From: a virus
Reading direction: 5' to 3' (one strand)
Virus record (IMG/VR): IMGVR_UViG_3300045988_177309
Span: 32,170-96,169 of that record
Length of the DNA stretch: 64,000 nucleotides
The position numbers were made by a program, and so were the translations under genes. Shown piece by piece: positions 31,006 to 63,897 of the stretch (positions are counted from its first letter, which is position 1; each line of letters opens with the position of its first letter). Under the pieces are notes generated by a model, which had not been told where the DNA came from, did not search any database, and was given only the letters and a program-made list of their open reading frames with translations.

Positions 31006-34000
31006 ATGGCAACTGCATTTAGACCCGTCCGCACAACTAAAGATAGGCTAAATATTGAAAAATATAATGAAGGCTATATTTATATGGTAAAAGATAGCGG
31101 CCAAATTTTTATGGATGCTGATGGGAAACGTATATTATTAGGTAATAATGGTGTGTCATTATTTTATGGTACTGACGAAAAACCAGTAGAAGATCCAGAT
31201 TTAGAAACTGGTTATATTTTAGTATTAAGTAAAATAGAAAATTATGAAAATTGCCATGAAGGTGATTTAATTTTAAATAAAAACGATGGTGCTTTTTATC
31301 AAATATTAACTATTGATGAACCAAATGATTAGATATATTGTGCGCGTTTATCTATAAGTGGCGGTGGTGGAGGCAGTGGAGATAATCCTGGCGGTGGCCG
31401 CAATATGACTTTTAAAGTTGAAGGTTTAACACACTCTACTGTTATTAATGGTACAGAAGTTTCCACTTATGTGACTGCGACCGCAAAACAAGATGCCAAT
31501 GGTGATTATGAAGATGATGTTTTAACCATTAATTGGGCTTTATATGAAGGCATTAAAGATGAAGGCACTCCTTATATGCGCGGTACATTTGAAGTTAATA
31601 ATGGCGAAAGGACACAATTTGAATTTGGTAAACGATTAAAAGCTAATACCACGAGTTCATTGTGGATGACCGCTTCCGGTGTTAATAGTGGTATTTCTAT
31701 AAAACGTAATATTCAAGTTACGACTGTTGATTTGATTCTTAGCCGCAGTTCCAAATTTTCACCTTTAACTTTATATAGTTCTACGGTTAAACCTATTATG
31801 TATTGTAACGTGTCTGGCGCAATTACTAAACAATTATTATTTTATGTAGATAATGAATTGGTAAATGAGCAGATATTAGATTATAATAATAATGGTGAAA
31901 AATCTTATACAATAAATACCGCAACATTAGAGCATGGCACTCATATAGCTCGTTTTGAATTATATTCTTATGAAAATAACAAACAAGGTGCTGGCCCAGA
32001 ACCTATTGAATTTGAATTTGCTTATAATAGTGGCTCAAATAATTTGCCAATTATTTGGATTGGTTCTTATAAGAATGAATACTATAATTATGATAAAATT
32101 CAAATTCCTTTCTTGGCTTATGATCCAAAAGTTCCAACCAATACAATTGTTAATTTTTATAAAGATGCAAAAATACTTGAATCTAAACAGTAGGTAATAA
32201 ATTTTACTTCTACTTCAGAATATAAAATTTTTGAAATTACTGATGTTACTACCGATGAAGAAAATCTTTACTATATTTCTTGTGGTGAAGGCGAACGTGA
32301 AGTGCGCCGCGAAATCGCATTTAACGTAAAGACTGATCCTAATCGTGATATGAACATCATTGCTGAAAACTTAATGCTTTCATTTGACGCAACTGGCCGC
32401 TCAAACAGTGAGTCGGCCGCAAATCGTGAAAAATGGCAGTATAACGATTATAAAGCAACTTTTGAAAACTTTAACTGGTATAATAATGGTTGGCTCCTAG
32501 ATGAAAATAATAACACTTGTTTACGTATAAGTAATGGGGCGAAGTTTTCAATTCCTATTGGCCCAATGACATTAAATTCTAATGTTAGTGGTATTAAAAA
32601 ATGTACCTTTGAATTTCAATTTAAAGTTAAGAATATTAGTAATTATAATAAATTAATTAAAGAAATTACTCGTTATTCTGACGACTAGGCTGCTTATGAT
32701 GCATTTCTTGCACAAGATAAGTATGATAATTATGATGCCTTCTTACATGATAAAGCATTAGAACTGTTAGGCAAAGAATATGATGATTTAGTCTTTAGTC
32801 AAGTTTATAAATAGATATCCACGGCAAATGCATTTTGTAAGTACATTACTGGCACTACTGGATTGTGTTTAGGACCATAGGGTGCTTTTTTTAGTGACGG
32901 TACTGATACTGTTAATGTGGCCTATGTTGAAAATTAGTTAGTTAATTTAAGTATTGTATTCTCTCCTAATTCTAATTTAATTTTAATTTATATTAATGGT
33001 GTTTTAACGGGGGTTAATAAGATTACAGTGGACAGTGCAGTTAATATCACAAGTTCAGCTATTGAATTTAATTCAAGCAATTGTGATATTGATTTATATA
33101 AAGTGCGTGTTTACTCTGAAAGCTTAGATCTATTAAATATTTTAAAGAATTATGCCGTTGATTTTAAGGATGTTTTAATTTATGATCAAAATAGCATTGC
33201 TTCTCTTGACACTAGTGTTGGTAATGAGCCTAGACTGCGCTATGAAGACATGATTCTTTATAATCAGACTCATCCTGATGATTATTTAATGCCTTATTTG
33301 ATTTTTGATGTAACTAATACTTCGTTGAAGAATATGCCTTATAAAAAAGCAGTTAAGGTTAATGGTGCAACCATTACTTTTGTTAATACTGGTTTAGATA
33401 GGGCTTATGAAAATGGCGAGTTACTTACTAAAATTAAAGAGGATAAAGAAATCGCTGGCATTCTTGCTGAATAGGGTGAAATTGCGGCAATTGAAGAATA
33501 TTATAAACATCATTGTCCAAGCTTCACTTCTACTGCCTATGAAGATTTAAATAATACTGGCGTAACGCTTTAGGTTCAAGGCACTTCTTCTGAATTCTAT
33601 CCTCGTCGCAATTATAAAATAAAAACTAAGGGTTCAGATAAGAATATCAATATGTATATGAATGCTGGGCCTTTTAAAAGTGCTTATAAAAATAAAGAAG
33701 ATAAGTGCCATCTTGATGCATTCTATTATGATAACTATACGGTAGGTACTACTAAATTTACTGTAAAGATTGATTATATGGAATCTTCCGGTACTTATAA
33801 TATGGGTATGGCTAATTTTGTTGCTAATGCCTATACAAAACATCCTATTAATGATTATAATAGTGTTGGCGCTTTTACTGAATCAAAAGAAAATTATGAA
33901 GTTGCAACCTCTTATGATGAAAACGCCACCTATTATGAACTAAATGAGGCTGGTAAATATAAGAAATTAACCGATCAAACTATTGTAAATGCTGAAAATG

Positions 34001-43919: not shown

Positions 43920-45211
43920 TGGCTGCAATTAAATTAGTTAATGTCGCAACAGTATTTCCAAAAAATCATGATTCAGTTTATTATATTGATAATAAAAACT
44001 ATATAACATTAGAATCTTATGATTTATGTGCTCAAGACTTTAGTATTGAATGATGGGAATATCCTATTGTTAATACTTGCGGCACAAGATTTACATCTAT
44101 CTTTCCTGATGCTTATAATAATGGTAGTGGAGGTTTGTTATTAGGCTCTGTAAGTACAGCTCCTAATATTTAATTATATGGTAGTTATGGAATAGCAAAT
44201 GGTTCTAACTGGACAATTTGGTCTTAGAAAGCTATGACAGCAAATACTCTAAATACTTGGACACATCGTCGTTATGAACGCATAGGTACTGTTATGTATG
44301 AGTATATTAATGGCACAAAGACTAATGTGTATACTTGTAATAATTATGGATTTTGGGCTTCTTCTGCATTTCCGATGGCTATTGGATATTAGGCAAAAGA
44401 TAGTACAAATGTTGGTTCTTATTTTTAGGGCTATATGCAGAATTTCCGCATTCATAAGGGAGCAATAGGCAATGGCACTACTGCACCAATAGATGATTTA
44501 ACTATCCCACAACTGGACGTTACAATTATCGATAAAGGCGAAGGAAATAAATTACCAATACCTAAGAGAGAATATAGCTTTAATGGTGTGTTTTATGAAT
44601 CTGGCGATGGAAATATTATTAATAATAACACTTATATAGCTTATGGCAATGGCGCAGTCACTGATGAAAACAATGTTTTAAATAGTAATTTTCCTTCTTC
44701 ACTTAAATTTGATGGTGAAAATTCTGGCGACGGCTGTTCAGTTGAAATTCCAATAAATTTATCTAAAGATTTTACTATTGAAACCTGGCTAAATGTTTGG
44801 GCAGTCCCAACATAGCCATCAGCTTTATTATCTTTGCAAGATTCTAATAGTACTAATACAGTTACATTATTGCATGGAGTGAATTATGGTACATTATATG
44901 TTGATTCTACTGACAGTAATCGAATAACTATAACACCCAATAACTGGCATCATTATGCCATTATGAAAAAAGGCGATCGAATATCATGGTTTTATGATGG
45001 AGAATTTGTTGATGTCGTTAAACAAATTACTTTGCCTAATACTATTTCAGCTATTTTATCTATTAATGGTAATGGTTTTGGTGATAATTTTACTGTTAGT
45101 AGTTCTGGTATTTATATAAATGATTTATATGTAACCAATAAAGCTATTTATAATGATAATGGTTTTACACCTCCAGAAGAGTACAGAGAACTTATTTTTT
45201 ATGATTTTTAA
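43919..45211 (+). CDS. tandem LamG (concanavalin-A-like lectin) domain protein; its first domain carries in-frame TGA and TAA (possible pseudogene or partly decayed gene)
   Basis: A single frame runs from 43919 to 45211. Two LamG_3-like domains are present. The first reads DFSIE-x-WEYP...WTHRRYERIGTVMYEYINGTK...GYMQNFRIHKG and the second DFTIETWLNV...WHHYAIMKKGDRISWFYDGEFV...IYINDLYVTNKAIY. TGA at ~44051-44053 and TAA at ~44171-44173 lie in-frame inside the first domain. Four in-frame TAG codons are also present. Confidence 0.4.
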
Positions 45212-53356: not shown

Positions 53357-54304
53357 TCATTCTAAATTACCAGCGTGTTTTACGCGTGCTTCAACTTCAG
53401 CTTGCTTGCCTTTATTAAAGGCTGACTTGTAGTCGCCAGTAAGATAGCCTGTCACACGTCGAAGTTGCTGTATATTATGACTATGGCATTCGGGGCATTC
53501 ATCATTAAATTCATCAGTATATCCACAATCTAAGCAAGTATCATTTGGAACATTAATAGCAAAGTAAGGAATATCTTTATCCATTGCATAATTTACTATT
53601 TGTTCTAATGCATCCAAATTATTTTTTACCGAAGAGTCTAATTCGATATAGGTAATACATCCAGCATTACTATATCCAGTAAGTTGACTTTCAAGATCGA
53701 TTTTATCAAAAACATCAATCTTTTCCCAAACTGGAATGTGTATAGAATTGGTGAAATATTCATGATCACTAACCTTGGGAATAACTCCATATTTTATTTT
53801 AAACTTTTTCATGGCTGTATAACATAAATTTTCAGCAGGAGAAAAATATACACCAAAATTAAGTTTATATTTTTCTTTAAATTCAGCGCAACGAGTTTTA
53901 AAAAGTTGTTCTATACGTTTAGCCAATTCCATTCCCTTTGGATTGGTATGATTGCAACCAATTAATAATTCTAAAGTCTCCGCGAGACCAAGTTGACCTA
54001 TAACGAGCGTACCATGCTTTAATGCACTCCTTATGCCTTCTTCCGGCTTATATCCTGCCATTAGCCCATTTTCATACATAAATTTGGCACTATCAGGACT
54101 TTGTGAACAAATCCATTCAAAACGTTCAAGAAGCATATCTTTTGCTTCATGAATTTTAGTATCCAAAAGAGCCATAAACTCTCCAACATTTCTACCTGCT
54201 TCCATAGCCAAAGTGGGCAATATAATTGTAACAGGGCAAATATTTCCACGGCCATCTTTTTGCTGACCAAGGCCATTGATATCCATGCCATTAGATGTTC
54301 TACA
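53357..54304 (-). CDS. nrdD: anaerobic ribonucleoside-triphosphate reductase, exon 3 (C-terminal part with Zn ribbon and glycyl-radical motif)
   Basis: Contains ...CRTSNGMDINGLGQ...GNICPVTIILP...CLDCGY...CPECHS...RRVTGYLTGDY... The exon start was placed at the Cys codon that completes the conserved MGCR-like junction. Confidence 0.8.
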   Translation of the reverse strand, partial: CRTSNGMDINGLGQQKDGRGNICPVTIILPTLAMEAGRNVGEFMALLDTKIHEAKDMLLERFEWICSQSPDSAKFMYENGLMAGYKPEEGIRSALKHGTLVIGQLGLAETLELLIGCNHTNPKGMELAKRIEQLFKTRCAEFKEKYKLNFGVYFSPAENLCYTAMKKFKIKYGVIPKVSDHEYFTNSIHIPVWEKIDVFDKIDLESQLTGYSNAGCITYIELDSSVKNNLDALEQIVNYAMDKDIPYFAINVPNDTCLDCGYTDEFNDECPECHSHNIQQLRRVTGYLTGDYKSAFNKGKQAEVEARVKHAGNLE

Positions 54305-54817
54305 CGTATAATTCCAATATCCCTATTGGTACTGACTATATCTTCAATTCTTTTTTGAATTGTCTTCCGCTTCGAGCGAGTGCTTATCTCTCACCCTACT
54401 CCCTTACATTCATCAGGGATAGTCGATACAGATTTTTAAATATTATAAATGAAATTCTACTTCTCCATAATCACCAGTACAATATCGAACAATATTCTCT
54501 TCAGGAATTGTATATTCTTTAATTGTGCAATTTTCATTTACGCCAAGCTCTTTAGAAAAATATTTTTCTAAATATTCAAGAGAAATGCAGCCATACAAAG
54601 TATTAGGAGGATTTTTGATAGAGCACTCAGGGTCAAATCTACAAATGCCTTGTAGAGTAAACCAAGGTCCCCCGCCATCTTCTTTTTCATATCTGTAAAC
54701 TTTTATCATAATATTTAAACTTTCCACGGTCTCATCTGTTCTAGACCTAACCGTTAGCAGCATTATCAATGCCACACCTGCGAGCGCAGTTCAAAAGATT
54801 TTAAATGAGCTGAGTTT
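54305..54817 (-). mobile_element. group I intron 2 in nrdD (~513 nt)
   Basis: It separates the exon ending ...TYFSTMG from the exon starting CRTSNG... Its 3' core carries CGACTATCC...GGAGTAGGG, elements shared with intron 1. Confidence 0.6.
54443..54775 (-). CDS. intron-borne ORF of unknown function (110 aa, GTG start)
   Basis: Lies inside nrdD intron 2 and has no recognisable nuclease motif. Confidence 0.3.
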   Translation of the reverse strand: MALIMLLTVRSRTDETVESLNIMIKVYRYEKEDGGGPWFTLQGICRFDPECSIKNPPNTLYGCISLEYLEKYFSKELGVNENCTIKEYTIPEENIVRYCTGDYGEVEFHL

Positions 54818-55078
54818 TCACTTACCCATTGTTGAAAAATATGTCCGTGGATCTAAGCGGTCATATCCTTCATTACCGCTCCAATCTACATTAGCATAAT
54901 TAGGATAAAGTCTTGTTGAAGTAGACTTTAATGCTAATTTAAATAAATCATAATTAGGATCACCAGGTTCACGATTTACTCCTCGCATACATTGGAAAAT
55001 GCCGCAAGGAAAAATTGAAGTTCTATGATGTTTACCAGTACCTTCAATAGATACTTCAAGCATTGCTTTTGTAATCAT
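54818..55078 (-). CDS. nrdD: anaerobic ribonucleoside-triphosphate reductase, exon 2
   Basis: Contains ...GKHHRTSIFPCGIFQCMRGVN...LYPNYAN...TYFSTMG. The true 5' exon boundary is probably slightly inside this ORF. Confidence 0.7.
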   Translation of the reverse strand: MITKAMLEVSIEGTGKHHRTSIFPCGIFQCMRGVNREPGDPNYDLFKLALKSTSTRLYPNYANVDWSGNEGYDRLDPRTYFSTMGK

Positions 55079-56164
55079 ACGCCCTTCTGGAAGAGTGCAA
55101 GTGCCGTAGTTAACGCTCGTAAAAGGTAATTGGTTTCCACTTCGACTTTGTAAAGTATTCCTTTAATATTCAACTGAGTTCGTTAATCTCAGCCCGATAA
55201 AATAAGTCGATGATTTTATCTGCTATATGTCGCCATATAGAATAGACTATATCTTCATCCTCTATCGAGGAGCCTATCATTTCGATTTAAGGGGTTCTCA
55301 CCCACCACTTGGCCCTACTCCTGTAGACGAATTTCACGTCCTATATGGATAGTCGTTAGGCATTTAATAATATGTGTGTTTGTTCTTCTGTTGCGTATTG
55401 GAAATGATATCCACCAGTTGTTTCCAATCTTTGTCCTTTACAAACTTTAGAAATATTTGTAGCATAAAGATTTAGTTGTCTAGCACATTCTTGTATTGAC
55501 TCATAAACAGTATCTAATTCAACACAATATACCGGTTTTTTATCTTTTTTAGCAGCAATAATATGTTGGCGTTTTTCTTCCGAACAAGAGCCTGTTGATT
55601 TTCCTCTTTTTGCTTCAGAAATGTGTTGTTTATGTTCTTCGGTAAATTTTTTTCCTTTTAAAGCTAATCGAATTTTTTCTTTAGTCTCTTCTGAGCATGG
55701 ATGTGCGCCATTGGTATTATTTTTCATATTATTGGAAAGTTTTTGTCTTGCTTCTTCTGACATAATCGTCATTTCTCCGCCAGTTGTTAAATTATATCCA
55801 TTTGGAGACAAAGAATTAAACTTTTTAATGTAATATTGCTCTTTTTCACAAGCCTCATCTTTAGTAAGGTTAGTTTCTAATATCTTGTGTTCAAAGTTAT
55901 CCCAACCATATTTTTGAATAGCTGCATAAAATTTTGGACTCGTTGAATATTTTTGACCATTTAATCCCCAGCGTTCTTCTGGTTTTCTTTTCGTTATTCC
56001 AATATATTGTTTTCCATTTATTTTATTTATATGCTGATAAACTAAATAACATTCTTCCATATAAGCTACCTCCTTTCCTTAAAAAATTCACATATTATAT
56101 TTAGCACGGGATTGTCTACTTGAAATTTTCCCCGTTTAGATAGGTTAGGTTCTTAATATTACTA
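55079..56164 (-). mobile_element. group I intron 1 in nrdD (~1.1 kb) carrying a GIY-YIG homing endonuclease gene
   Basis: Exon 1 runs into the TAA at 56165-56167. The intron contains an ORF with its own ribosome-binding site. Its 3' core carries CGACTATCC...GGAGTAGGG, matching intron 2. Confidence 0.7.
55356..56060 (-). CDS. GIY-YIG homing endonuclease (I-TevI-like), intron-encoded; contains no TAG
   Basis: Starts VYQHINKINGKQYIGITKRKPEERW and contains NGYNLTTGG. Ribosome-binding site AAGGAAAGGAGG. Confidence 0.8.
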   Translation of the reverse strand: MEECYLVYQHINKINGKQYIGITKRKPEERWGLNGQKYSTSPKFYAAIQKYGWDNFEHKILETNLTKDEACEKEQYYIKKFNSLSPNGYNLTTGGEMTIMSEEARQKLSNNMKNNTNGAHPCSEETKEKIRLALKGKKFTEEHKQHISEAKRGKSTGSCSEEKRQHIIAAKKDKKPVYCVELDTVYESIQECARQLNLYATNISKVCKGQRLETTGGYHFQYATEEQTHILLNA

Positions 56165-57136
56165 TTAAGCCGCCCAAATACTTAGGTTATGGTAAAGACC
56201 TTCGACCGCTTGGTGAACTTCACGAACAGTCATATCCATAGCATATTTATAAGCTTTATCAAAATCTCCAGAATCATCTACTTTATTTGGATAAGCTGAA
56301 TAATCATTAATTGGAATATCTATAATTTTTTTATAGATATCACTATCCTCTAAATAATTATCTAAATTCCAATTACAATTACATAAATACTTCATACCAT
56401 CACGATAATGCTTATAAAAAGATTTACGCACATAAGGAACCATAGTCCAATCAAGATGGGTCGCACTTACGCCACCAAATTGCTGAAGACTCTAAAGCTG
56501 AAAAATTACTGCGACAAGTTGCATTGCAGTATTTACAGAACCTGCAGGGCGCACATCTGCTTGCCGAGTTGTAAATCCATTTGCGAGAAGATCATCGAAT
56601 GGAACGCTTAAGCAATTATGGCTACCAACAAAGTATGCATCTAGATCATGAATGTAAATTTCATTATTTAAATGATTATTTTTTGCCATTGAAGATACTA
56701 TATAATCAAGAGCTAGTGTACGTGTTACTAAACTTGCAGCTTCACCAGTACGACCGCCGAAAGAACGTTCATCAACATTGGCATTTTGATTTTGAACATC
56801 ATCGGCTTGAAGCTTTTCTTTAATAGCTTCAATAAACTCATTTTTATATTTTCTTGCGGTTTCTTGCTTATATCTAAAACGTATATAGGCTCTTGCAACA
56901 TCAGGTCGCTCAGAACGCATCAAATATTCTTCGACCCAATCTTGTATATTTTCTACAGAAATATTTTTTTCTTTGGATAACTTTTGAGCCTTTTTTTCTA
57001 TGTCATTTGCAATATCAATAGCAGTATCAAGTTCATAAACCTGGCCATCAACTTCTAAAAAAGCTTTTAAGATAGCTGCAACAATTTTAGTCTTATCAAA
57101 AGGAACTTGAGTGCCATCTCTTTTTATTATATACAT
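56165..57136 (-). CDS. nrdD: anaerobic ribonucleoside-triphosphate reductase, exon 1 (ATP-cone plus N-terminal catalytic region; 1 in-frame TAG)
   Basis: ATG at ~57136 with ribosome-binding site AAGGAG gives MYIIKRDGTQVPFDK (ATP-cone). ORFs 56492..57223 and 56165..56443 are in one frame, joined by the TAG at 56492-56494, reading ...AVIFQL-Q-SLQQFGG... Confidence 0.8.
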
Positions 57137-57219
57137 AAAATTGTATTTCTCCTTTACTTTAATATAAAAGTTTCTACTATATTTAGAGTTTTTTATATAA
57201 TTATAAACAAAATCTGCCC

Positions 57220-57810
57220 TCAATTTTCTTTTGTGCCAAATTCAGAAATTTTTTGTTTCATTATTGAAAGAGCTTTTTTATAGTCTTCAGTAGTATCATT
57301 TTTAAGCACTACACACTGTTCTAAAAATTCATCTTCAAAAGAAGCAAAATCTAATCTATCACTTTGATAACGTCGCACAATTTCATTAACGTCGGGGTCA
57401 ATTTCTCGATTTAGTTGCCGTAACAAACGAATTTTATCAGTGCTAGTTTTAATATAAAAAATCAATAAATCAACATTAGGATGAGAAAGAATTGCACGAA
57501 TTGCATCAGGGTCAAATACTCCAATATTAATATTAGTTACACGTAAACTATCATAACTAGTGCCGTAACACCAATTATTAAAAACAGTTGCTTCAATAAA
57601 TTCATCATTTAAAAGCTTTTCCGCAAATAGTTCAGGTATAATAAAATAATAATTTAATCCATCTACTTCCTTATCCCTCTTGGGTCGAGTGGTTGTTCTT
57701 ATAATTTCATGATAAGAAGGATTATTTTCTATAAATTTATGAAGCAGAAAGTCTTTTCCACTTCCTGCTTCACCACAAAGAGCAACAATTTTATACTTAG
57801 GCAGTTTCAC
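57220..57810 (-). CDS. gmk: guanylate kinase-like nucleoside monophosphate kinase (196 aa)
   Basis: Contains GEAGSGKDF (P-loop) and IRTTTRPKRDKEVDGLNYYFI (guanylate-kinase signature). No TAG. Confidence 0.7.
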   Translation of the reverse strand: MKLPKYKIVALCGEAGSGKDFLLHKFIENNPSYHEIIRTTTRPKRDKEVDGLNYYFIIPELFAEKLLNDEFIEATVFNNWCYGTSYDSLRVTNINIGVFDPDAIRAILSHPNVDLLIFYIKTSTDKIRLLRQLNREIDPDVNEIVRRYQSDRLDFASFEDEFLEQCVVLKNDTTEDYKKALSIMKQKISEFGTKEN

Positions 57811-60800
57811 TACTATACCTCTCGCTTATCAAATTAATTTCTCCTTTATCATTAATTGAATCAATTTTATAAAGAGTATGGCCAGGAGTTGAATTATATT
57901 TTTTAACCAAAAAAATATCATCAATCCTCACTCCAGTAACAACAATCATGCTGCCGCGATTAAACCAACCTTTTTCCTTTACATGTTTACAACCATCAGC
58001 TCCACGTTCGGAAATTTGTTTGTCAAATAACGCAAAAAATTCTTTACGAAATTTTAGTTCAACAACGCCAGAAGTAGTTAACAGTGTAACGGTACTTTTT
58101 GTTTTATTCTTTGCAATACAAGTACCACAAATACGTGATAATTTGAATAAAGGAATTTCACGGCCATTACGCTTAAAAGTCTTATCTACTATTGGAGTGG
58201 TAGGTAATTTTGCAAAATCACTAATTCCATATTTAGTGATGGGTAAATGCGCTAATTCATGTTCATGATAATAGAAACATAAAACTTCCATTTCCCAAGC
58301 AGAAATTGTACCTTGAGCATAATTTTTCCAATCTTCTACAAAAATAATTTTATTAAGGGAATTTAAAACTTCATTCTGGTTTTTAGTAATATAATCTCTA
58401 ACTACATTCATTTCGGATTGATAAAATTTATCCCAGAGTAAAGTATTTATAATAAATTGTCCGCAATATTCAACTGCATTAAAAGAAATAACACCTATAT
58501 CATGCAGCTCATTAATAAAATTAATTGCTCTATCATCTAAAATATAAAATTCAACTTGTTTATTAACAATTCGCAATGTTATTTTTTTACAGACTTTTTT
58601 CAAATATCTTGTAAATTCATAAACTCGGCTTGCTAAAACTATTGAATCGTCTTTTGGAAGTATATCATATTTAATAAGACTGGCCATATTTTGCAAAGTA
58701 ATACGGTTTTTCTTATCACAGGTTTGCCATATGTACCAAGCCATTGCAAACTTCCTATTTTCCATTGAATCAAAAGCACCGCTTTTAATTAATGAAACCA
58801 TCGCGCGACGGCCAATTTTTACCTTTGCAAGAAAATCTTTTATTGAAACGTAGGGGCGATTATTAATTATATCTTGTACTATATCATCACCAACATTTAG
58901 AATACCTTTAAGACCGAAAAGAATTTGATTATTTTCAATGTCTGGCGCAAATCCAAAAGCTGAACGATTAATGTCTGCAAGACTTACTTTAATTCCCGCA
59001 CTTTGGATATCACCAATTGCGCGGGCTATTTTCCCATAATCGGTGGCAGCTCTGCGACGCTTTTTCTTACCACTGCGGTCAGGCAAATCTTCATATTCAT
59101 ATTCTGAAAAATCTTCAGGCTCATATATATTTACAATTTCTTCTTCTTCTGGAAGTTGTTCCAAGCTGCCACTATTAACTATTAAACATGCAGTATCCCA
59201 ATAAATAGGGTTAAAATTAATAGCGAGATAAATCATTTGTATACCAACAAATGAATAGGGGAGCGAATGATTCAGTGAGAACGCATAACCTAGGGACGGC
59301 GCCACCACGACCTCCCACACGTATTCGGCAACCCTAACATCATCAAATCGTGAAAAGAGTTGCTCTTTAAGTGCGGGGATTTTATCCATTTGTTTTTTGG
59401 CGACAACCTTCCTAGCAGCATTAGACTCAGCCAATGAAAATCCAGCAACGTCCATCAAAATTTCCATCATTTGTTCCTGCAAGGCGCAGCAACCATAATA
59501 TCTATCACAATGTTTGTGGAGTTTTTGAATTATATCTTCAGGAAGATTGTGTTGTCGCATTTCATCATCAAAAGCTTTAATGCCAGCTTTTTGAATACGA
59601 CAATATCTATCTTGCTGACTTTCCTGGCCCTTTTCACTCATTAACCTCATTAATGCGTTTGCGGCAGTCATCTCAATAGGATCTTGAGGTTTAAGCTTTT
59701 TCGCAACTGCCAAACCCACTCCGGTGGAAAACTGAAATACATCAAGCACATCTCCTGCACTCAGATGATCCCAGATGCGCTGATCTTTTGTATTAAGCAC
59801 TTCTGGATGTAAATATTGGTTATAAAAATCTCTTAATCCCATTTGTGGAATTTCATTATACTTACTCAGAAGATTGTAGCACTGGATAATTTTATCACAG
59901 GCTTCAGTTACAAGGAAGTCATACTTGACATCACCGGCGCTTTCAGCCCGATGGAGATCATAACATGTAATCAATTCGCCACTAGGCGCGCGCATTACAC
60001 TTGCAGTTTCAAAAATATGATTTTTATCATAAAGAATAACGCCAGAAGCATGAATGGTTCTTTTATTTACTACACCTTCTATATTAAGCATAATATCTAA
60101 AAGACCTGGGTATTGTTCTACCTCATGAATAAAAGGCTTTACCGGAGCTCTATCCTCTTCAGGATTGCCATAAATAACATCTTTTAGGGGCCATAAAAAT
60201 CCTCGATGTTGAGGTATAAGCGAACTCATATACTGAGCTGTGTCAACATCAATGCCTTCAGGAAAATCTTCAGTACGATAACCACGGCATGCGGTCAGAA
60301 TTGCAGACTTCGTGCCCTCTGTACCGAAGGCTGCAACTTGAACCAAACCGTATTCTCCACGCTCCTTACGAATCGCTTCGAAGATAGCCGGTCGGCGCGA
60401 GGGGGCTAGATCTATATCGATGTCTGGAAGTTCAACGCGCTCGAGGTTCAGGAACCGCCAATACTATAAACCCCATCTTACGGGTTCAAGTTGAGTAATA
60501 CCCAATAAATAATTCGACAAAAAGCCCGTAGCGCTACCTCGGCCAGGGCCAACAATTGATCCACATTCCCAAAATAAATCAATATAATGCTTAAAAGTGT
60601 TAAAATATGCAAAAAGACAATCATGCAATTTATTTCCAATAGTCAAAATTACGTTGGCCTCTGTTTCAAGCCTTTCATAATAAATCTTATCAGTTAATTT
60701 TTTTTCATGCATCGCCATAACGCACTCATTTACCCAAGCTCTTTCTTGCAGGTTTTCACTCATAAAGAGCTGATGCAAAATAGGATATTCTTCACATTGA

Positions 60801-61760
60801 TTTTTTTGAGGATAAAATACAACCTCTACTTTTGGAATGCTTTGAGTTTTTTCTAATGAGTAATCTTGAATTTTATCTTTAATTTTTAAAGTATTTTGAA
60901 AAATCCAATTAATTATTTCATCATTATTAAATGATTTATTTAATAACTCTCGACATTCTTTTTCATCCATTAAATAGGTAAATTCATAAAATAAATCAAC
61001 TTCTCTATCGCCATCTTTTGAATTAAGATAAGCTTTATGAATAGGACGATCTGTGCGAGTCAAGTAATGTGAGTCTGTGGCCACAACCATAGGAATATGA
61101 TAATTTTGTGCAATTTTAAACAATTTTTGATTTACTGTTATTTGATCTTGTTGAGTAGAAGGAGCGCATTCAATATAAAAATCATCACCAAAAATATCTT
61201 TGCAATATTGAATAAAAGTACATATATCTTGATAAGCAAGAGTTGCAGTTTCTATATCATCTTTTTTTTGGGCATTTACCATTGCCAAAGCTTTAGTTGA
61301 TAATTCACCACCAATACAAGCTGTAGTTGCAATTATATGGCCTTTATACTTTTGCATAATGTTTTTAAGTTCACTTTTTAATAAAGGAACTCTATCCATA
61401 TTGCGATCATTATACATGCCATACCAAGCTGCTGAACTAAGTTCATGTAAACCTTGATGTCCATATAAATCTTTTGCAATTAGTATAAAATGATAGTATT
61501 TTTGTCCAGACTTTCTTTCATCAACTAAATATATCTCATTTCCCAATGCAATTTTAAAATTAGGATATTTTTCATGGATTTTTTTTGCATATTGATTTAC
61601 TTCCATATGAGCACTTAAACATTCATGATCTGTAATTGCTATTCCCTCAAGACCCAATTCAATTGCTTTATCAATAAGTTTCTTTGGGTCATTTATACAG
61701 TCAAAGCAAGCGAATATTAGAGTACCAAGTATGATTATGACAATTAAAATATGAACTCAC
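57797..61760 (-). CDS. dnaE: DNA polymerase III alpha subunit (~1300 aa); needs a +1 frameshift at CTT TGA C (~61700-61706) and reads one in-frame TAG (60464-60466)
   Basis: GTG at ~61760 with ribosome-binding site AAAGGAGGG gives MSSYFNCHNHTWYSNIRLL in frame X. This ends at CTT TGA, and the +1 frame continues DCINDPKKLIDKAIELGLEGIAITDHE... (PHP domain). TAG joins ...EPVRWGL-Q-YWRFLNLERVELPDIDIDL..., the conserved DnaE motif. Downstream are the HhH and OB regions. Confidence 0.75.
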
Positions 61761-61792
61761 TATTCTCCCTCCTTTCATTTCTTTCTATATAT

Positions 61793-61821
61793 ATTATACT
61801 ATATAACATTTTATATATCAA
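61793..61821 (-). promoter_or_regulatory. sigma-70-type promoter for dnaE: TTGATA, 17-nt spacer, TATAAT
   Basis: The minus-strand sequence is TTGATAtataaaatgttatatagTATAAT, ~30 nt upstream of the dnaE ribosome-binding site. Confidence 0.55.
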
Positions 61822-61829
61822 CATATATA

Positions 61830-62633
61830 TTATCTCTAATAATATTGTTCTTCATTTTCAGGAGTTAACAAAAACCTTGTTGTTTCAAGTTTTAAATCAT
61901 TTAAATTATATTCTATATTATAAGGAATTCGAATCAAAGGAATATGATGTTCAAAACAATATTTATTTTTTAATAAATCATTTTGATGAGTTTTTTCAAA
62001 GCGCTCTTTAGTATGCCATCCAATATCATTATAAGAAAAATGCTATAAACCATCATATTCAATTAAATATAATAAAATATCTGTATTATAAACAGCAATA
62101 TCAAACATTAATTCATCACAAGTTCGACCAGTAGATGTTAAACCTTTAAACTTTTGCTATGTTACATATTTAATTCCTAAATCTTCTAACATTTTTTGAA
62201 TACGAACTTCATGATAACTTGTTAAACATCCACAACTTTTAGTGTCGCCATTTCTTAAATAGTCTCCACGAACAATAACATTTTTTTTACCACAATTTAA
62301 ACAAGTGCAATTCCAATAAACGCTTTGGGTATCTTTTCGAGGTTTCTCCTCTTCAGTAGCCATACGATTTACAAGCAAAAAACCGTAAGTTTTTTCTTCT
62401 TCGTGTTTAATGCTTGCCTAACGTATTTTTTCCATACGAATACATCCACAGTTAGTAGAATGACCGCTTCTTAAATGGCTCCCATCTACAACTTTTATTG
62501 TTCCACAAGCTGTACATTTGCATTTCCAGCGAGCTCTTCCATAAGAATTATTTTCTGCTCGTTCTAATACATGCCAATAGCCAAAATCTTTATTTGTTAA
62601 ATCTATTAATCGGCTCATCTTTTTTACCTCCAA
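61830..62633 (-). CDS. free-standing homing-endonuclease-like protein: tandem Zn-ribbon motifs plus a C-terminal Vsr/DUF559-like nuclease domain (~267 aa; 3 in-frame TAG)
   Basis: ORFs 62418..62633 and 62157..62378 and the downstream stretch are in one frame, joined by TAG. It has two copies of YW.C.C..CG...........G.T.SCGC, then ...CDELMFDIAVY...ILLYLIEYDGLQHF. Confidence 0.5.
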
Positions 62634-62694
62634 GTTTATTCTCCTATTTATTATAAACTTTGTGAGAAGTAACTTATATGCTTATGTCTAGAAA

Positions 62695-63897
62695 TTACCA
62701 TCGTTTAACCCATACTAATTTTTTGGAGGCTCGAGTAATTGCCGTATATATAGCTTTAAGATGTGTTTCTTTATCGAAAGGATGGCCTTCTTCAAGAGCT
62801 AACACTTTATCCCATTGGCTTCCTTGTGCTTTCCAATAAGTAATTGCATAAGCATAAGCAAAATCATAGGGGGGGCCATAGGGGAATCTCTTGCTTTTCT
62901 TCATCATCATTAATTGTCTGTCAGTTAAAGTACGTTGTCCAGTTTTTAGATAAGGATAATCTATCGGAATGCTCTTAAATATAGAGCCATCTTCGGCATT
63001 CATATTAGTATACATATATAAATAAGGAAAGGAACTAACATATTGTGGCAACCAAATTGACCTTTTTCTAAAAGAAGTAATAGTACCAATAGTTCCATTA
63101 GTTAATGGCATATCTCTACCATCTCTGGAGCAAAATTCCCAACGATTATGTAAGCCGATAATTTTATCTCCAATTTCAGGCTCTACTCCAAAACCTCGAT
63201 ATTCTCTAAATAGAGCATTTATTTCTGTACGTTTCTCATTTGTTGCACATAATACTTGATCGGCCCATAAATAAACATCTTTATACAAGTCTTTAGGAGA
63301 TAAAATCATGACTTCTTTATTATCAGCCTGATAACTTGAAACACTTTTACCCTCTCGGACATGCATTGAAAAGCGAATGATTTCACTTTCTTGCGCCTGC
63401 CGCATTATTTCATCAAGAAAGACGTGAGGATGATCTAAAATATGATTATCGTCATTTTTTGAAATCGGCGGAAGTTGAAATGGGTCTCCAAGAGCTAAGA
63501 CATACACATGATGACTTAGTAACTGCTCCCACATTCCAATAGGTAACATTGAAACTTCATCAACTACAATTACTTTAAAATCATTATCTAATTCATCTTT
63601 TGGAATAAAGATATAACTTCCATCAGGCTGCTGACAGGCTTGATATAAAAGCTTATGTGCAGTAATGGCATTAGGACAACCTTTTTGGGCAAGCACGGTT
63701 GCAGCTTTACCAGTAAATGCAACATAGGCTACATCTTCATGAGGATCAACCCCAAGCGCTGCAATAATAAAGGTTACAAGCGTAGATTTACCACTTCCAG
63801 TTAAGCGTAGCCAGCGATACAAGTGTAAGGCTCATTACTCTTATATCGGGCTACGGCGATCTTCAATCCTTCCTCTTGTTTTTTTGTTAATATCATT
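62695..63897 (-). CDS. dda: Dda/RecD-like SF1 DNA helicase; its N-terminal 31 codons lie in a different frame (5-nt disruption at ~63803-63807)
   Basis: The 375-aa ORF carries TGSGKST, VVDEVSML, GDPFQLPPI, KAQGSQWD and YTAITRA. Upstream, ATG...MILTKKQEEGLKIAVARYKSNEPYTCIAGYA matches the Dda N-terminus up to the P-loop and then hits TAA; the main ORF lies in the -1 frame. Confidence 0.65.

Follow-up and report, generated by a model that had tools for sequence, protein, structure and literature searches.

In the 64,000-nucleotide stretch made up of positions 32,170 to 96,169 of the IMG/VR virus record IMGVR_UViG_3300045988_177309 (the window, by which we mean the whole stretch at its full length), the gene for the phage DNA polymerase III (Pol III) alpha subunit, dnaE, is split between two reading frames at the heptamer CTT TGA C. 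We find that a +1 ribosomal frameshift at this heptamer is the best-supported route to full-length DnaE and put the probability of this reading at roughly 80%. Four lines of evidence bear on it and were observed directly: the DNA sequence of the locus, the recurrence of the site in other phages, the enrichment of a particular codon context around it and the frame-specific constraint on either side. The dnaE locus is laid out as follows.

61773-61765, minus strand: dnaE ribosome-binding site (RBS) AGGAGGGAG, read from the sequence; duplex energy with the anti-Shine-Dalgarno (anti-SD) sequence, -12.1 kcal/mol.

61760-61758, minus strand: dnaE start codon GTG, read from the sequence, with the RBS in front of it.

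61704..61760, minus strand: frame-0 segment of dnaE, GTG plus 18 codons, V/M-SSYFNCHNHTWYSNIRLL, with CTT at 61706-61704 as its last codon; it is the first PHP metal-binding motif (HxH…YS), and the Pfam PHP match runs from residue 7.

61706-61700, minus strand: shift site CTT TGA C, the same site being present in 30 unique contexts of other phages.

61703-61701, minus strand: frame-0 stop codon TGA, which arises from an extra T at 61703 relative to in-frame CTT GAC alleles.

57797..61702, minus strand: +1-frame body of dnaE, 1301 codons plus TAA (57799-57797), starting with GAC at 61702-61700 and reading DCINDPKKLIDKAIELGLEGIAITDHE….

The 19 frame-0 codons end in …CHNHTWYSNIRLL and are followed directly by TGA. 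Encoded in the +1-frame body are the remainder of PHP, the catalytic domain of Pol III alpha, the fingers and the C-terminal domains. When CTT is joined to GAC and the intervening T is skipped, the result is a protein of 1320 amino acids that reads …HNHTWYSNIRLLDCINDPKK… across the junction, a residue-for-residue match to the ~70 in-frame homologues. The joined …YSNIRLLDCIN… is the exact family consensus, with zero residues added or dropped. Pfam recognizes PHP (1e-23, residues 7-198), DNA_pol3_alpha (5e-43) and the finger domain (1e-19) in the joined protein, which also aligns with Thermus Pol III alpha (PDB 2hpi) from residue 6. Having an N-terminal PHP domain with HxH together with catalytic and finger domains, it passes as a bacterial/phage Pol III alpha of the YorL-like kind. 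Because the Pfam and Thermus alignments start at residue 6-7, the 19 codons of frame 0 can be identified as the first PHP motif, not as a chance open reading frame (ORF).

A preliminary description of this DNA had proposed that a GTG behind a strong RBS opens the HxH…YS segment of PHP, and the duplex energy and the Pfam match bear this out. It had placed the rest of PHP and about 1280 codons in the +1 frame, close to the 1301 that we count, and had the frames switch at CTT TGA C, which we locate at 61706-61700 and where the join yields the family consensus. Its central claim, that full-length DnaE needs a +1 shift, gains support from the presence of the site in at least 17 lineages, from context enrichment and from a switch in constraint at the site, all described below. 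The heptamer by itself is unremarkable: the window contains 5 copies of CTT TGA C against 6.4 expected. It is only jointly that a break falling exactly on the heptamer, a join giving the exact consensus and recurrence across many genomes go beyond chance.

We compared the DnaE N-terminus with its relatives at 80 IMG/VR loci (L numbers below denote loci). About 70 of the 80 read straight through as …HNHT(M)YSNIRLLDCINRPK…, and in-frame relatives such as L039-L041 have …CTT GAC TGT… at this point. The CTT TGA CTG break was found again in L001, which is 96% identical to the window, and in L037, L038 and L061, which are 65% identical. L002 is in-frame, though 93% identical to its close relative L061, a +1 allele. 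A pattern scan of IMG/VR returned 33 true dnaE N-termini with CTT TGA C; a looser scan, which allowed any inserted base and any Leu codon, added 6 more, all of them CTT TGA T. Every one-base-insertion allele at this dnaE boundary is CTT-T-GA, and all +1 alleles have TGA. Three further carriers lie in gut or rumen bins of metagenome-assembled genomes (MAGs) assigned to Lachnospiraceae, Erysipelotrichaceae and 'Clostridium sp.'; among them is another relative of the window, the third, which has TTA where the window has TTG. In all, the site is carried by ~40 IMG/VR contigs and 3 contigs from MAGs, drawn from over 25 independent metagenomes.

The 30 unique +1 contexts form 17-19 clusters at 90-95% amino-acid identity and are up to 63% divergent. 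On a tree built from 134 unique DnaE segments, parsimony requires the site to have switched state 18 times or more. In the lineage of the window itself it is shared by three members (the window, L001/L097 and L308), which differ at synonymous neighbouring positions (TTG vs TTA, ACT vs ACC). A clade consisting only of +1 alleles (L081, L083 and L120-L122) retains the site through 18% amino-acid divergence, with GAC and GAT varying. Among 50,697 phage records there was no near-identical DNA, and the closest isolates are less than 60% identical and in-frame.

The codons around the break distinguish +1 from in-frame alleles. At least 120 in-frame alleles in IMG/VR match the corresponding pattern; the comparison set is the 106 unique in-frame contexts among the matches listed, and the in-frame counts that follow are all drawn from it. 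The P-site codon is CTT in 30/30 +1 contexts vs 37/106 in-frame ones (35%; p = 8e-12). GAC, which places a C after the UGA, follows in 26/30 +1 contexts (87%) vs 34/106 (32%; p = 1e-7), and its excess is also seen against those in-frame alleles that already use CTT (26/30, 87%, vs 9/37, 24%; p = 4e-7). In the E site, TTA occupies 27/30 +1 contexts (90%) vs 44/106 (42%; p = 2e-6). The Arg codon is AGR in 0/30 of the +1 contexts and in 28/106 of the in-frame ones. The minimal signal that the +1 alleles share is (H-T-C) CGY TTR CTT TGA Y.

Substitutions among the +1 alleles also change frame at the site. Upstream of it we counted 61 synonymous and 35 non-synonymous substitutions in frame 0, vs 20/90 and 4/98 in the other two frames; downstream the corresponding counts were 184/56 in frame +1 vs 39/196 and 14/208. 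Synonymous substitution is thus frame-specific on each side, which indicates that both halves of dnaE are kept as protein in their own frames. Taken with the occurrence in at least 17 lineages and the clade of +1 alleles only, this switch in constraint points to a conserved recoding site that is maintained by selection, and not to an error or a pseudogene.

From these observations we infer the ribosomal event itself, its efficiency, its dependence on release factor 2 (RF2) and its biological purpose. Ribosomes would initiate at the GTG at 61760, decode 19 codons and then stall, peptidyl-tRNA-Leu being paired with CUU in the P site while the A site presents UGA, a stop that terminates most weakly when C comes next. 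Most would probably be released there by RF2, yielding a 19-residue peptide. In a fraction, the tRNA-Leu would slip by one base, from CUU to UUU, and GAC would then be read as Asp; 1301 more codons would follow, giving full-length Pol III alpha with an intact PHP domain. A site of this kind would act as a translational attenuator whose output should rise as RF2 activity falls. There are three candidate purposes: an RF2-sensitive attenuator, a compensated 'savior' indel and immunity against homing elements.

The nearest known relative of the signal is that of the bacterial RF2 gene, prfB, whose conserved +1 core is CTTT, TGA and C, UGAC being a weak terminator (PMC12421855). The window has CTT_T at 61706-61703, TGA in the A site at 61703-61701 and C after the stop at 61700. 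The core is thus identical, with CUU in the P site, UGA in the A site, C following and a shift to GAC (Asp). Both sites lie ~20-25 codons into their genes, and an inverse dependence on RF2 is expected of both (PMC12421855). The two differ in that dnaE is a phage replicative polymerase gene and so has no autoregulatory loop; in that the internal SD-like AGGGGG, hyper-conserved in prfB, is absent at the dnaE site; and in distribution, the dnaE site being patchy (~30/136 unique contexts, the in-frame ones being those among the matches listed) and prfB sites clade-wide. The preliminary description had called the site prfB-like, which holds for the CTTT, the TGA and the following C but not for the internal stimulator. 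We conclude that the dnaE site is an SD-less variant in a new gene, with three of the four prfB elements and outside the prfB family. All CUU-stop +1 entries in RECODE are prfB genes (PMC10885494). In the literature we found no description of a dnaE +1 site or of natural short hops, and the site is not described in the GeneTack survey, in phage recoding papers or in the papers on T4 gene 60 and Streptomyces phage bypass.

The +1 site may be the one-nucleotide member of a series of stop-led micro-inserts (1-9 nucleotides) that this phage group has at catalytic-motif codons of its replication genes and that appear to be decoded by slippage or short hops of the P-site tRNA. The gene next to dnaE in the window, a helicase of superfamily 1 (SF1), has an insert of its own.

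63804..63896, minus strand: N-terminal segment of the SF1 helicase (RecD/Dda-like; AAA_30, UvrD_C_2), MILTKKQ…CIAGYA, ending at the take-off codon GCT.

63799..63803, minus strand: stop-led 5-nucleotide insert TAACT between …GYA and GSGKST (Walker A), identified by comparison with in-frame homologues.

62695..63798, minus strand: helicase body, from GSGKST… to the stop, in another frame than the N terminus and with no RBS-backed start in that frame.

Deleting TAACT (63803-63799) restores the canonical Walker A sequence GYAGSGKST, and in-frame homologues read …GYAG(T/S)GKST without interruption. The insert is a candidate for a +5 ribosomal hop from GCT to ACT, with decoding resumed at GGA. At the same helicase boundary in IMG/VR we found 58 unique contexts with 33 combinations of take-off codon and insert, the inserts being 5-8 nucleotides long and all led by TAA or TGA because the TRA search pattern demanded it. 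The 5-nucleotide inserts are all T[AG]AC[CTG]. In the 25 combinations with inserts of at least 6 nucleotides, the landing triplet is GCN in 14, GTN in 6, ACN in 4 and TCC in 1; GCN, which encodes Ala as the take-off codon does, is thus used in 14/25 against a chance expectation of 1/16, and the others are one mismatch away from GCN. Inserts of 6 nucleotides leave an in-frame stop, as in GCT TAA GCT GGA. One clade keeps its helicase insert while alternating between TAACT, TGACT, TAAGCT and TAAGTT. An intein-like insertion (…VTHN|T) occupies the helicase P-loop 12 nucleotides downstream of the micro-insert in L029, L038 and L061 (~L061:3780-4850), which makes this DNA a target of homing elements.

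There is a second hot spot in dnaE, 15 nucleotides upstream of the +1 site. Here 11 contexts have stop-led inserts of 6-9 nucleotides after the Tyr-Ser codon TCT (L029:5975-6020, L080:5974-6020, L253, L270 and L313-L337); TCT TAGTCT AAT and TCT TAACTCT AAT are examples, and some of the inserts are in-frame. The landing triplet is TCT or TCA in 7/11 contexts, and in the remaining ones it matches at 2/3 positions. That the last triplet of an insert repeats or nearly repeats the preceding codon is expected if the P-site tRNA re-pairs there. The helicase and the dnaE Tyr-Ser inserts look like natural short ribosomal hops over a stop. Recoding in dnaE and inserts in the helicase did not co-occur significantly in the same genomes (6/16 vs 23/75, p = 0.57).

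Two bodies of earlier work bear on such sites. In the synthetic 'shifty stops' and 'stop-hops' that Weiss, Dunn, Atkins and Gesteland made in E. coli in 1987, as outlined in PMC5009743, peptidyl-tRNA slips +1 or re-pairs downstream. The same pattern is seen at dnaE CTT-T, at dnaE TCT-stop…TCT and at helicase GCY-stop…GCN; the 1987 sites were engineered and of low efficiency, whereas the phage sites are natural, recurrent and in essential genes. According to the 2016 review, no natural in-frame stop-hop was known, only synthetic constructs (PMC5009743). The same review describes 'savior' indels, such as that in the G-run of herpesvirus thymidine kinase, where low-level frameshifting supplies enough product and the indel brings some other advantage (PMC5009743). 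The dnaE allele would resemble these in being a frame-disrupting indel that is kept since low-level frameshifting would suffice, and it differs in that its shift site is a stop-dependent heptamer with no homopolymer run.

Several observations weigh against a +1 shift as the source of DnaE, or at least against an efficient one. The internal SD-like stimulator of prfB is missing: the mean anti-SD energy is +1.0 kcal/mol over the 30 +1 contexts vs -10.6 for the prfB reference, the purine fraction is 0.29, and in the slot 3 nucleotides upstream of CTT where prfB has AGGGGG the window reads ATTCGC. RNAalifold, applied to 19 divergent alleles from -51 to +79 nucleotides, found zero conserved pairs. 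With neither an SD-like stimulator nor a conserved structure, shifting is probably well below the efficiency of prfB. The unique contexts are phylogenetically non-independent, so that the p-values above overstate significance; the carriers nonetheless span many lineages. In most relatives the frame is continuous, and +1 alleles occur beside in-frame ones at 93-96% identity (L061/L002); L111, a +1 allele, sits among seven in-frame alleles within 4%. Patchiness of this kind would suit a recurrent mutation that is tolerated more than it would suit a finely adjusted regulatory device. Finally, all carriers are metagenomic, and no isolated phage with the site was identified.

The comparison with relatives has two sides for the preliminary description, which had set a continuous frame in related phages against its own proposal. 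The site recurs in at least 17 lineages, and most relatives, including one at 93% identity, keep a continuous frame. This continuity marks a patchy, recurrent allele and does not make the site spurious. The CTT TGA allele is, as its distribution indicates, a recurrent and patchy variant of phage dnaE with very recent gains or losses, and no ancient fixed feature.

Among the alternatives, the one that survives best accepts +1 decoding as described and disputes its purpose. The extra T, and the inserts of 5-9 nucleotides, would destroy the target of a homing endonuclease or intein, and the frameshift would merely rescue the gene, as for a savior indel. In the window, a homing-endonuclease gene lies directly upstream of dnaE.

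61830..62633, minus strand: free-standing homing-endonuclease-like gene, with PHROG HNH/homing endonuclease matches at E ~1e-24.

At the same junction, L014, L031 and L073 have GIY-YIG endonucleases, and all three also have helicase inserts; inteins sit 12 nucleotides from the helicase insert site in L029, L038 and L061; and the gene for NrdD in the window is split by an endonuclease ORF. The patchy distribution with its fast turnover fits a conflict, and there is a precedent in the bypass of T4 gene 60 and MobA (10.1101/2022.08.31.505936; PMC5009743). That system, too, involves a replication-related phage gene, a stop-led insert after a take-off codon, a matching landing codon and a homing-endonuclease setting, in which the gene 60 insert protects against cleavage. 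In gene 60, however, 50 nucleotides are skipped (20 in one clade) as against gaps of 1-9 here; a take-off stem-loop and a nascent-peptide signal are needed, whereas no conserved structure surrounds the dnaE site; and the insert is physically part of the MobA cassette, whereas the dnaE site has no demonstrable linkage to an endonuclease. Carriage of the +1 allele was not significantly associated with a recognizable endonuclease within 2.5 kb upstream (5/26 vs 14/89, p = 0.76); p = 0.03 was reached only for a post-hoc subset of window-type HNH genes, with partial hits at variable distances. Moreover, L001 and L061 have the site with no adjacent endonuclease. Gene 60 with MobA is the nearest conceptual parallel for a putative purpose in homing immunity, and we hold immunity to be a possible but rather unlikely explanation of why the site exists.

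A real but inactivating mutation is much less probable still. In that case dnaE would be a pseudogene in defective phages, or another polymerase would be used, and the patchy, often very recent allele with in-frame relatives at 93-96% identity would be explained, as would two possible nonsense mutations in a late gene of the window. Random inactivation should, however, place indels at random positions, and all of those found lie at one codon boundary in a known shift context. The 1301-codon body is intact in every carrier examined, purifying selection is frame-specific on both sides of the site, and the clade of +1 alleles only has kept it through 18% divergence.

We give about as little weight to the idea that two products are made, the 19 codons being a leader ORF after which ribosomes would re-initiate, or initiate internally (TTG 61657 is one candidate), to give an N-terminally truncated DnaE lacking HxH. 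Termination followed by re-initiation is common in phages, and this TTG lies 48 nucleotides downstream in the +1 frame, but it has no RBS. The leader, moreover, is the conserved PHP motif I under amino-acid constraint and no arbitrary peptide, and re-initiation does not account for the excess of CTT, of C behind the stop and of TTA in the E site.

Decoding by a special tRNA, such as a phage tRNA-Leu that reads the quadruplet CUUU, or correction at the RNA level by transcriptional slippage or editing, strikes us as similarly improbable. Phages of 130-200 kb often encode many tRNAs, and the inserted base is always T after CTT. However, no tRNA gene was found within the 64-kb window, decoding of a quadruplet would give no reason for C to be favoured behind the stop or for selection on the E-site codon, and the 5-9 nucleotide inserts in the same genes could not be read in that way; as for slippage, three T's are generally too few for a polymerase.

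The weakest alternative, already named in the preliminary description, is a sequencing or assembly error that added a T to a short T run in a truly in-frame dnaE, and although only a change from TT to TTT is called for and in-frame CTT GAC alleles do exist, we regard it as effectively excluded, since the same T recurs across the ~40 IMG/VR and 3 MAG contigs, more than 25 metagenomes and DnaEs up to 63% divergent, three members of the window lineage share it amid different synonymous neighbours, only CTT-T-GA is ever found, no other random frame breaks were seen across the 64-kb window, and a homopolymer of 3 bases is not error-prone.

The quality of the assembly was also judged from its ORFs. 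With TAG read as sense, the only coding-strand ORFs that have no RBS-backed start are dnaE, the adjacent helicase and one late gene; there being only three of them, the assembly is not full of indels. That late gene (~43921-45211, plus strand) has a single frame that runs through an in-frame TGA (~44054) and a TAA (44171-44173); at these positions L310, a close relative, has TGG (Trp) and CAA (Gln). These are either two nonsense mutations in the window or leaky decoding of TGA as Trp and TAA as Gln late in infection. The TGA stands in the context GAA TGA TGG GAA, its flanking GAA codons being identical.

The phage of the window is TAG-recoded: ORF coverage of the 64 kb rises from 66% with the standard code to 96% with TAG as sense, and ORFs then reach up to 3148 codons. 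The dnaE +1-frame body has exactly one in-frame TAG.

60466-60464, minus strand: the in-frame TAG of dnaE, decoded as sense (Gln), with a Gln at this position in L001, a close relative (…GLQYWRFLN…).

Reading TGA as Trp (code 4) was tried and rejected, as it does not rescue frame 0 of dnaE, where TAA is met within a few codons. The preliminary description had suggested a tie between the dnaE site and rewired termination. This tie was not supported: no excess of +1 alleles was seen among loci where TAG recoding is detectable (5/35 vs 27/132), in a comparison based on local loci of 5-14 kb, which classify the code poorly since TAGs are few in early genes. As a separate observation, the CTT TGA C carrier L110 (IMGVR_UViG_3300026522_000022) has an ORF coverage of 0.78 with the standard code vs 0.97 with TGA as sense and appears to be TGA-recoded locally; if so, a late-expressed TGA suppressor would shut off DnaE synthesis.

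The junction between helicase and dnaE (window 61761-62694 and its equivalents in L001-L080) is highly variable in gene content. In roughly half of the lineages the two genes are ~70 nucleotides apart, and in the others 1-2 ORFs are inserted, whose products are homing endonucleases (HNH-like or GIY-YIG), a DNA methyltransferase or members of a 15-member family of unknown function. Among the first 80 loci, L029 and L034 alone have homologues of the window's homing endonuclease at this place. Farther along, the gene for the anaerobic ribonucleotide reductase NrdD (window 53357-57241, minus strand) is apparently in at least three pieces (56165-57241, 54818-55162 and 53357-54343). Between the pieces lie a GIY-YIG homing-endonuclease ORF at 55356-56078 and another ORF at 54443-54790, probably within group I introns.

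Extending the +1 reading of dnaE to the longer inserts gives a broader proposal, whose chances we consider evenly balanced. A large group of uncultured phages that probably infect Firmicutes would routinely have stop-led micro-insertions of 1-9 nucleotides (at two sites in DnaE PHP and one in helicase Walker A) and decode them by +1 slippage or by +5 to +9 hops that land on a matching codon. No natural stop-hops, and no CUU UGA C site outside prfB, would have been known before them, and they could serve as a release-factor-sensitive gate on the making of replication proteins, as an anti-homing defence or as both.

CUU UGA C has been treated as essentially private to prfB, and dnaE would be its second natural use. 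If true, recurrent use in an essential phage polymerase with no SD stimulator would mean that a bare shifty stop is enough in nature, and the many natural variants would allow the effects of context to be dissected at the E-site codon, the base after the stop and the upstream Arg codon. The helicase and dnaE Tyr-Ser inserts would be the first natural short stop-hops. Genes of this kind are now mis-annotated as truncated or split in metagenomic phage catalogues, and the rule given here permits their correct annotation. The sites suggest either that release factors govern the synthesis of phage replication proteins or that homing endonucleases are escaped in a new and very cheap way. Taken with the hop-like inserts, the dnaE site suggests that a large group of uncultured phages has a habit not described before.

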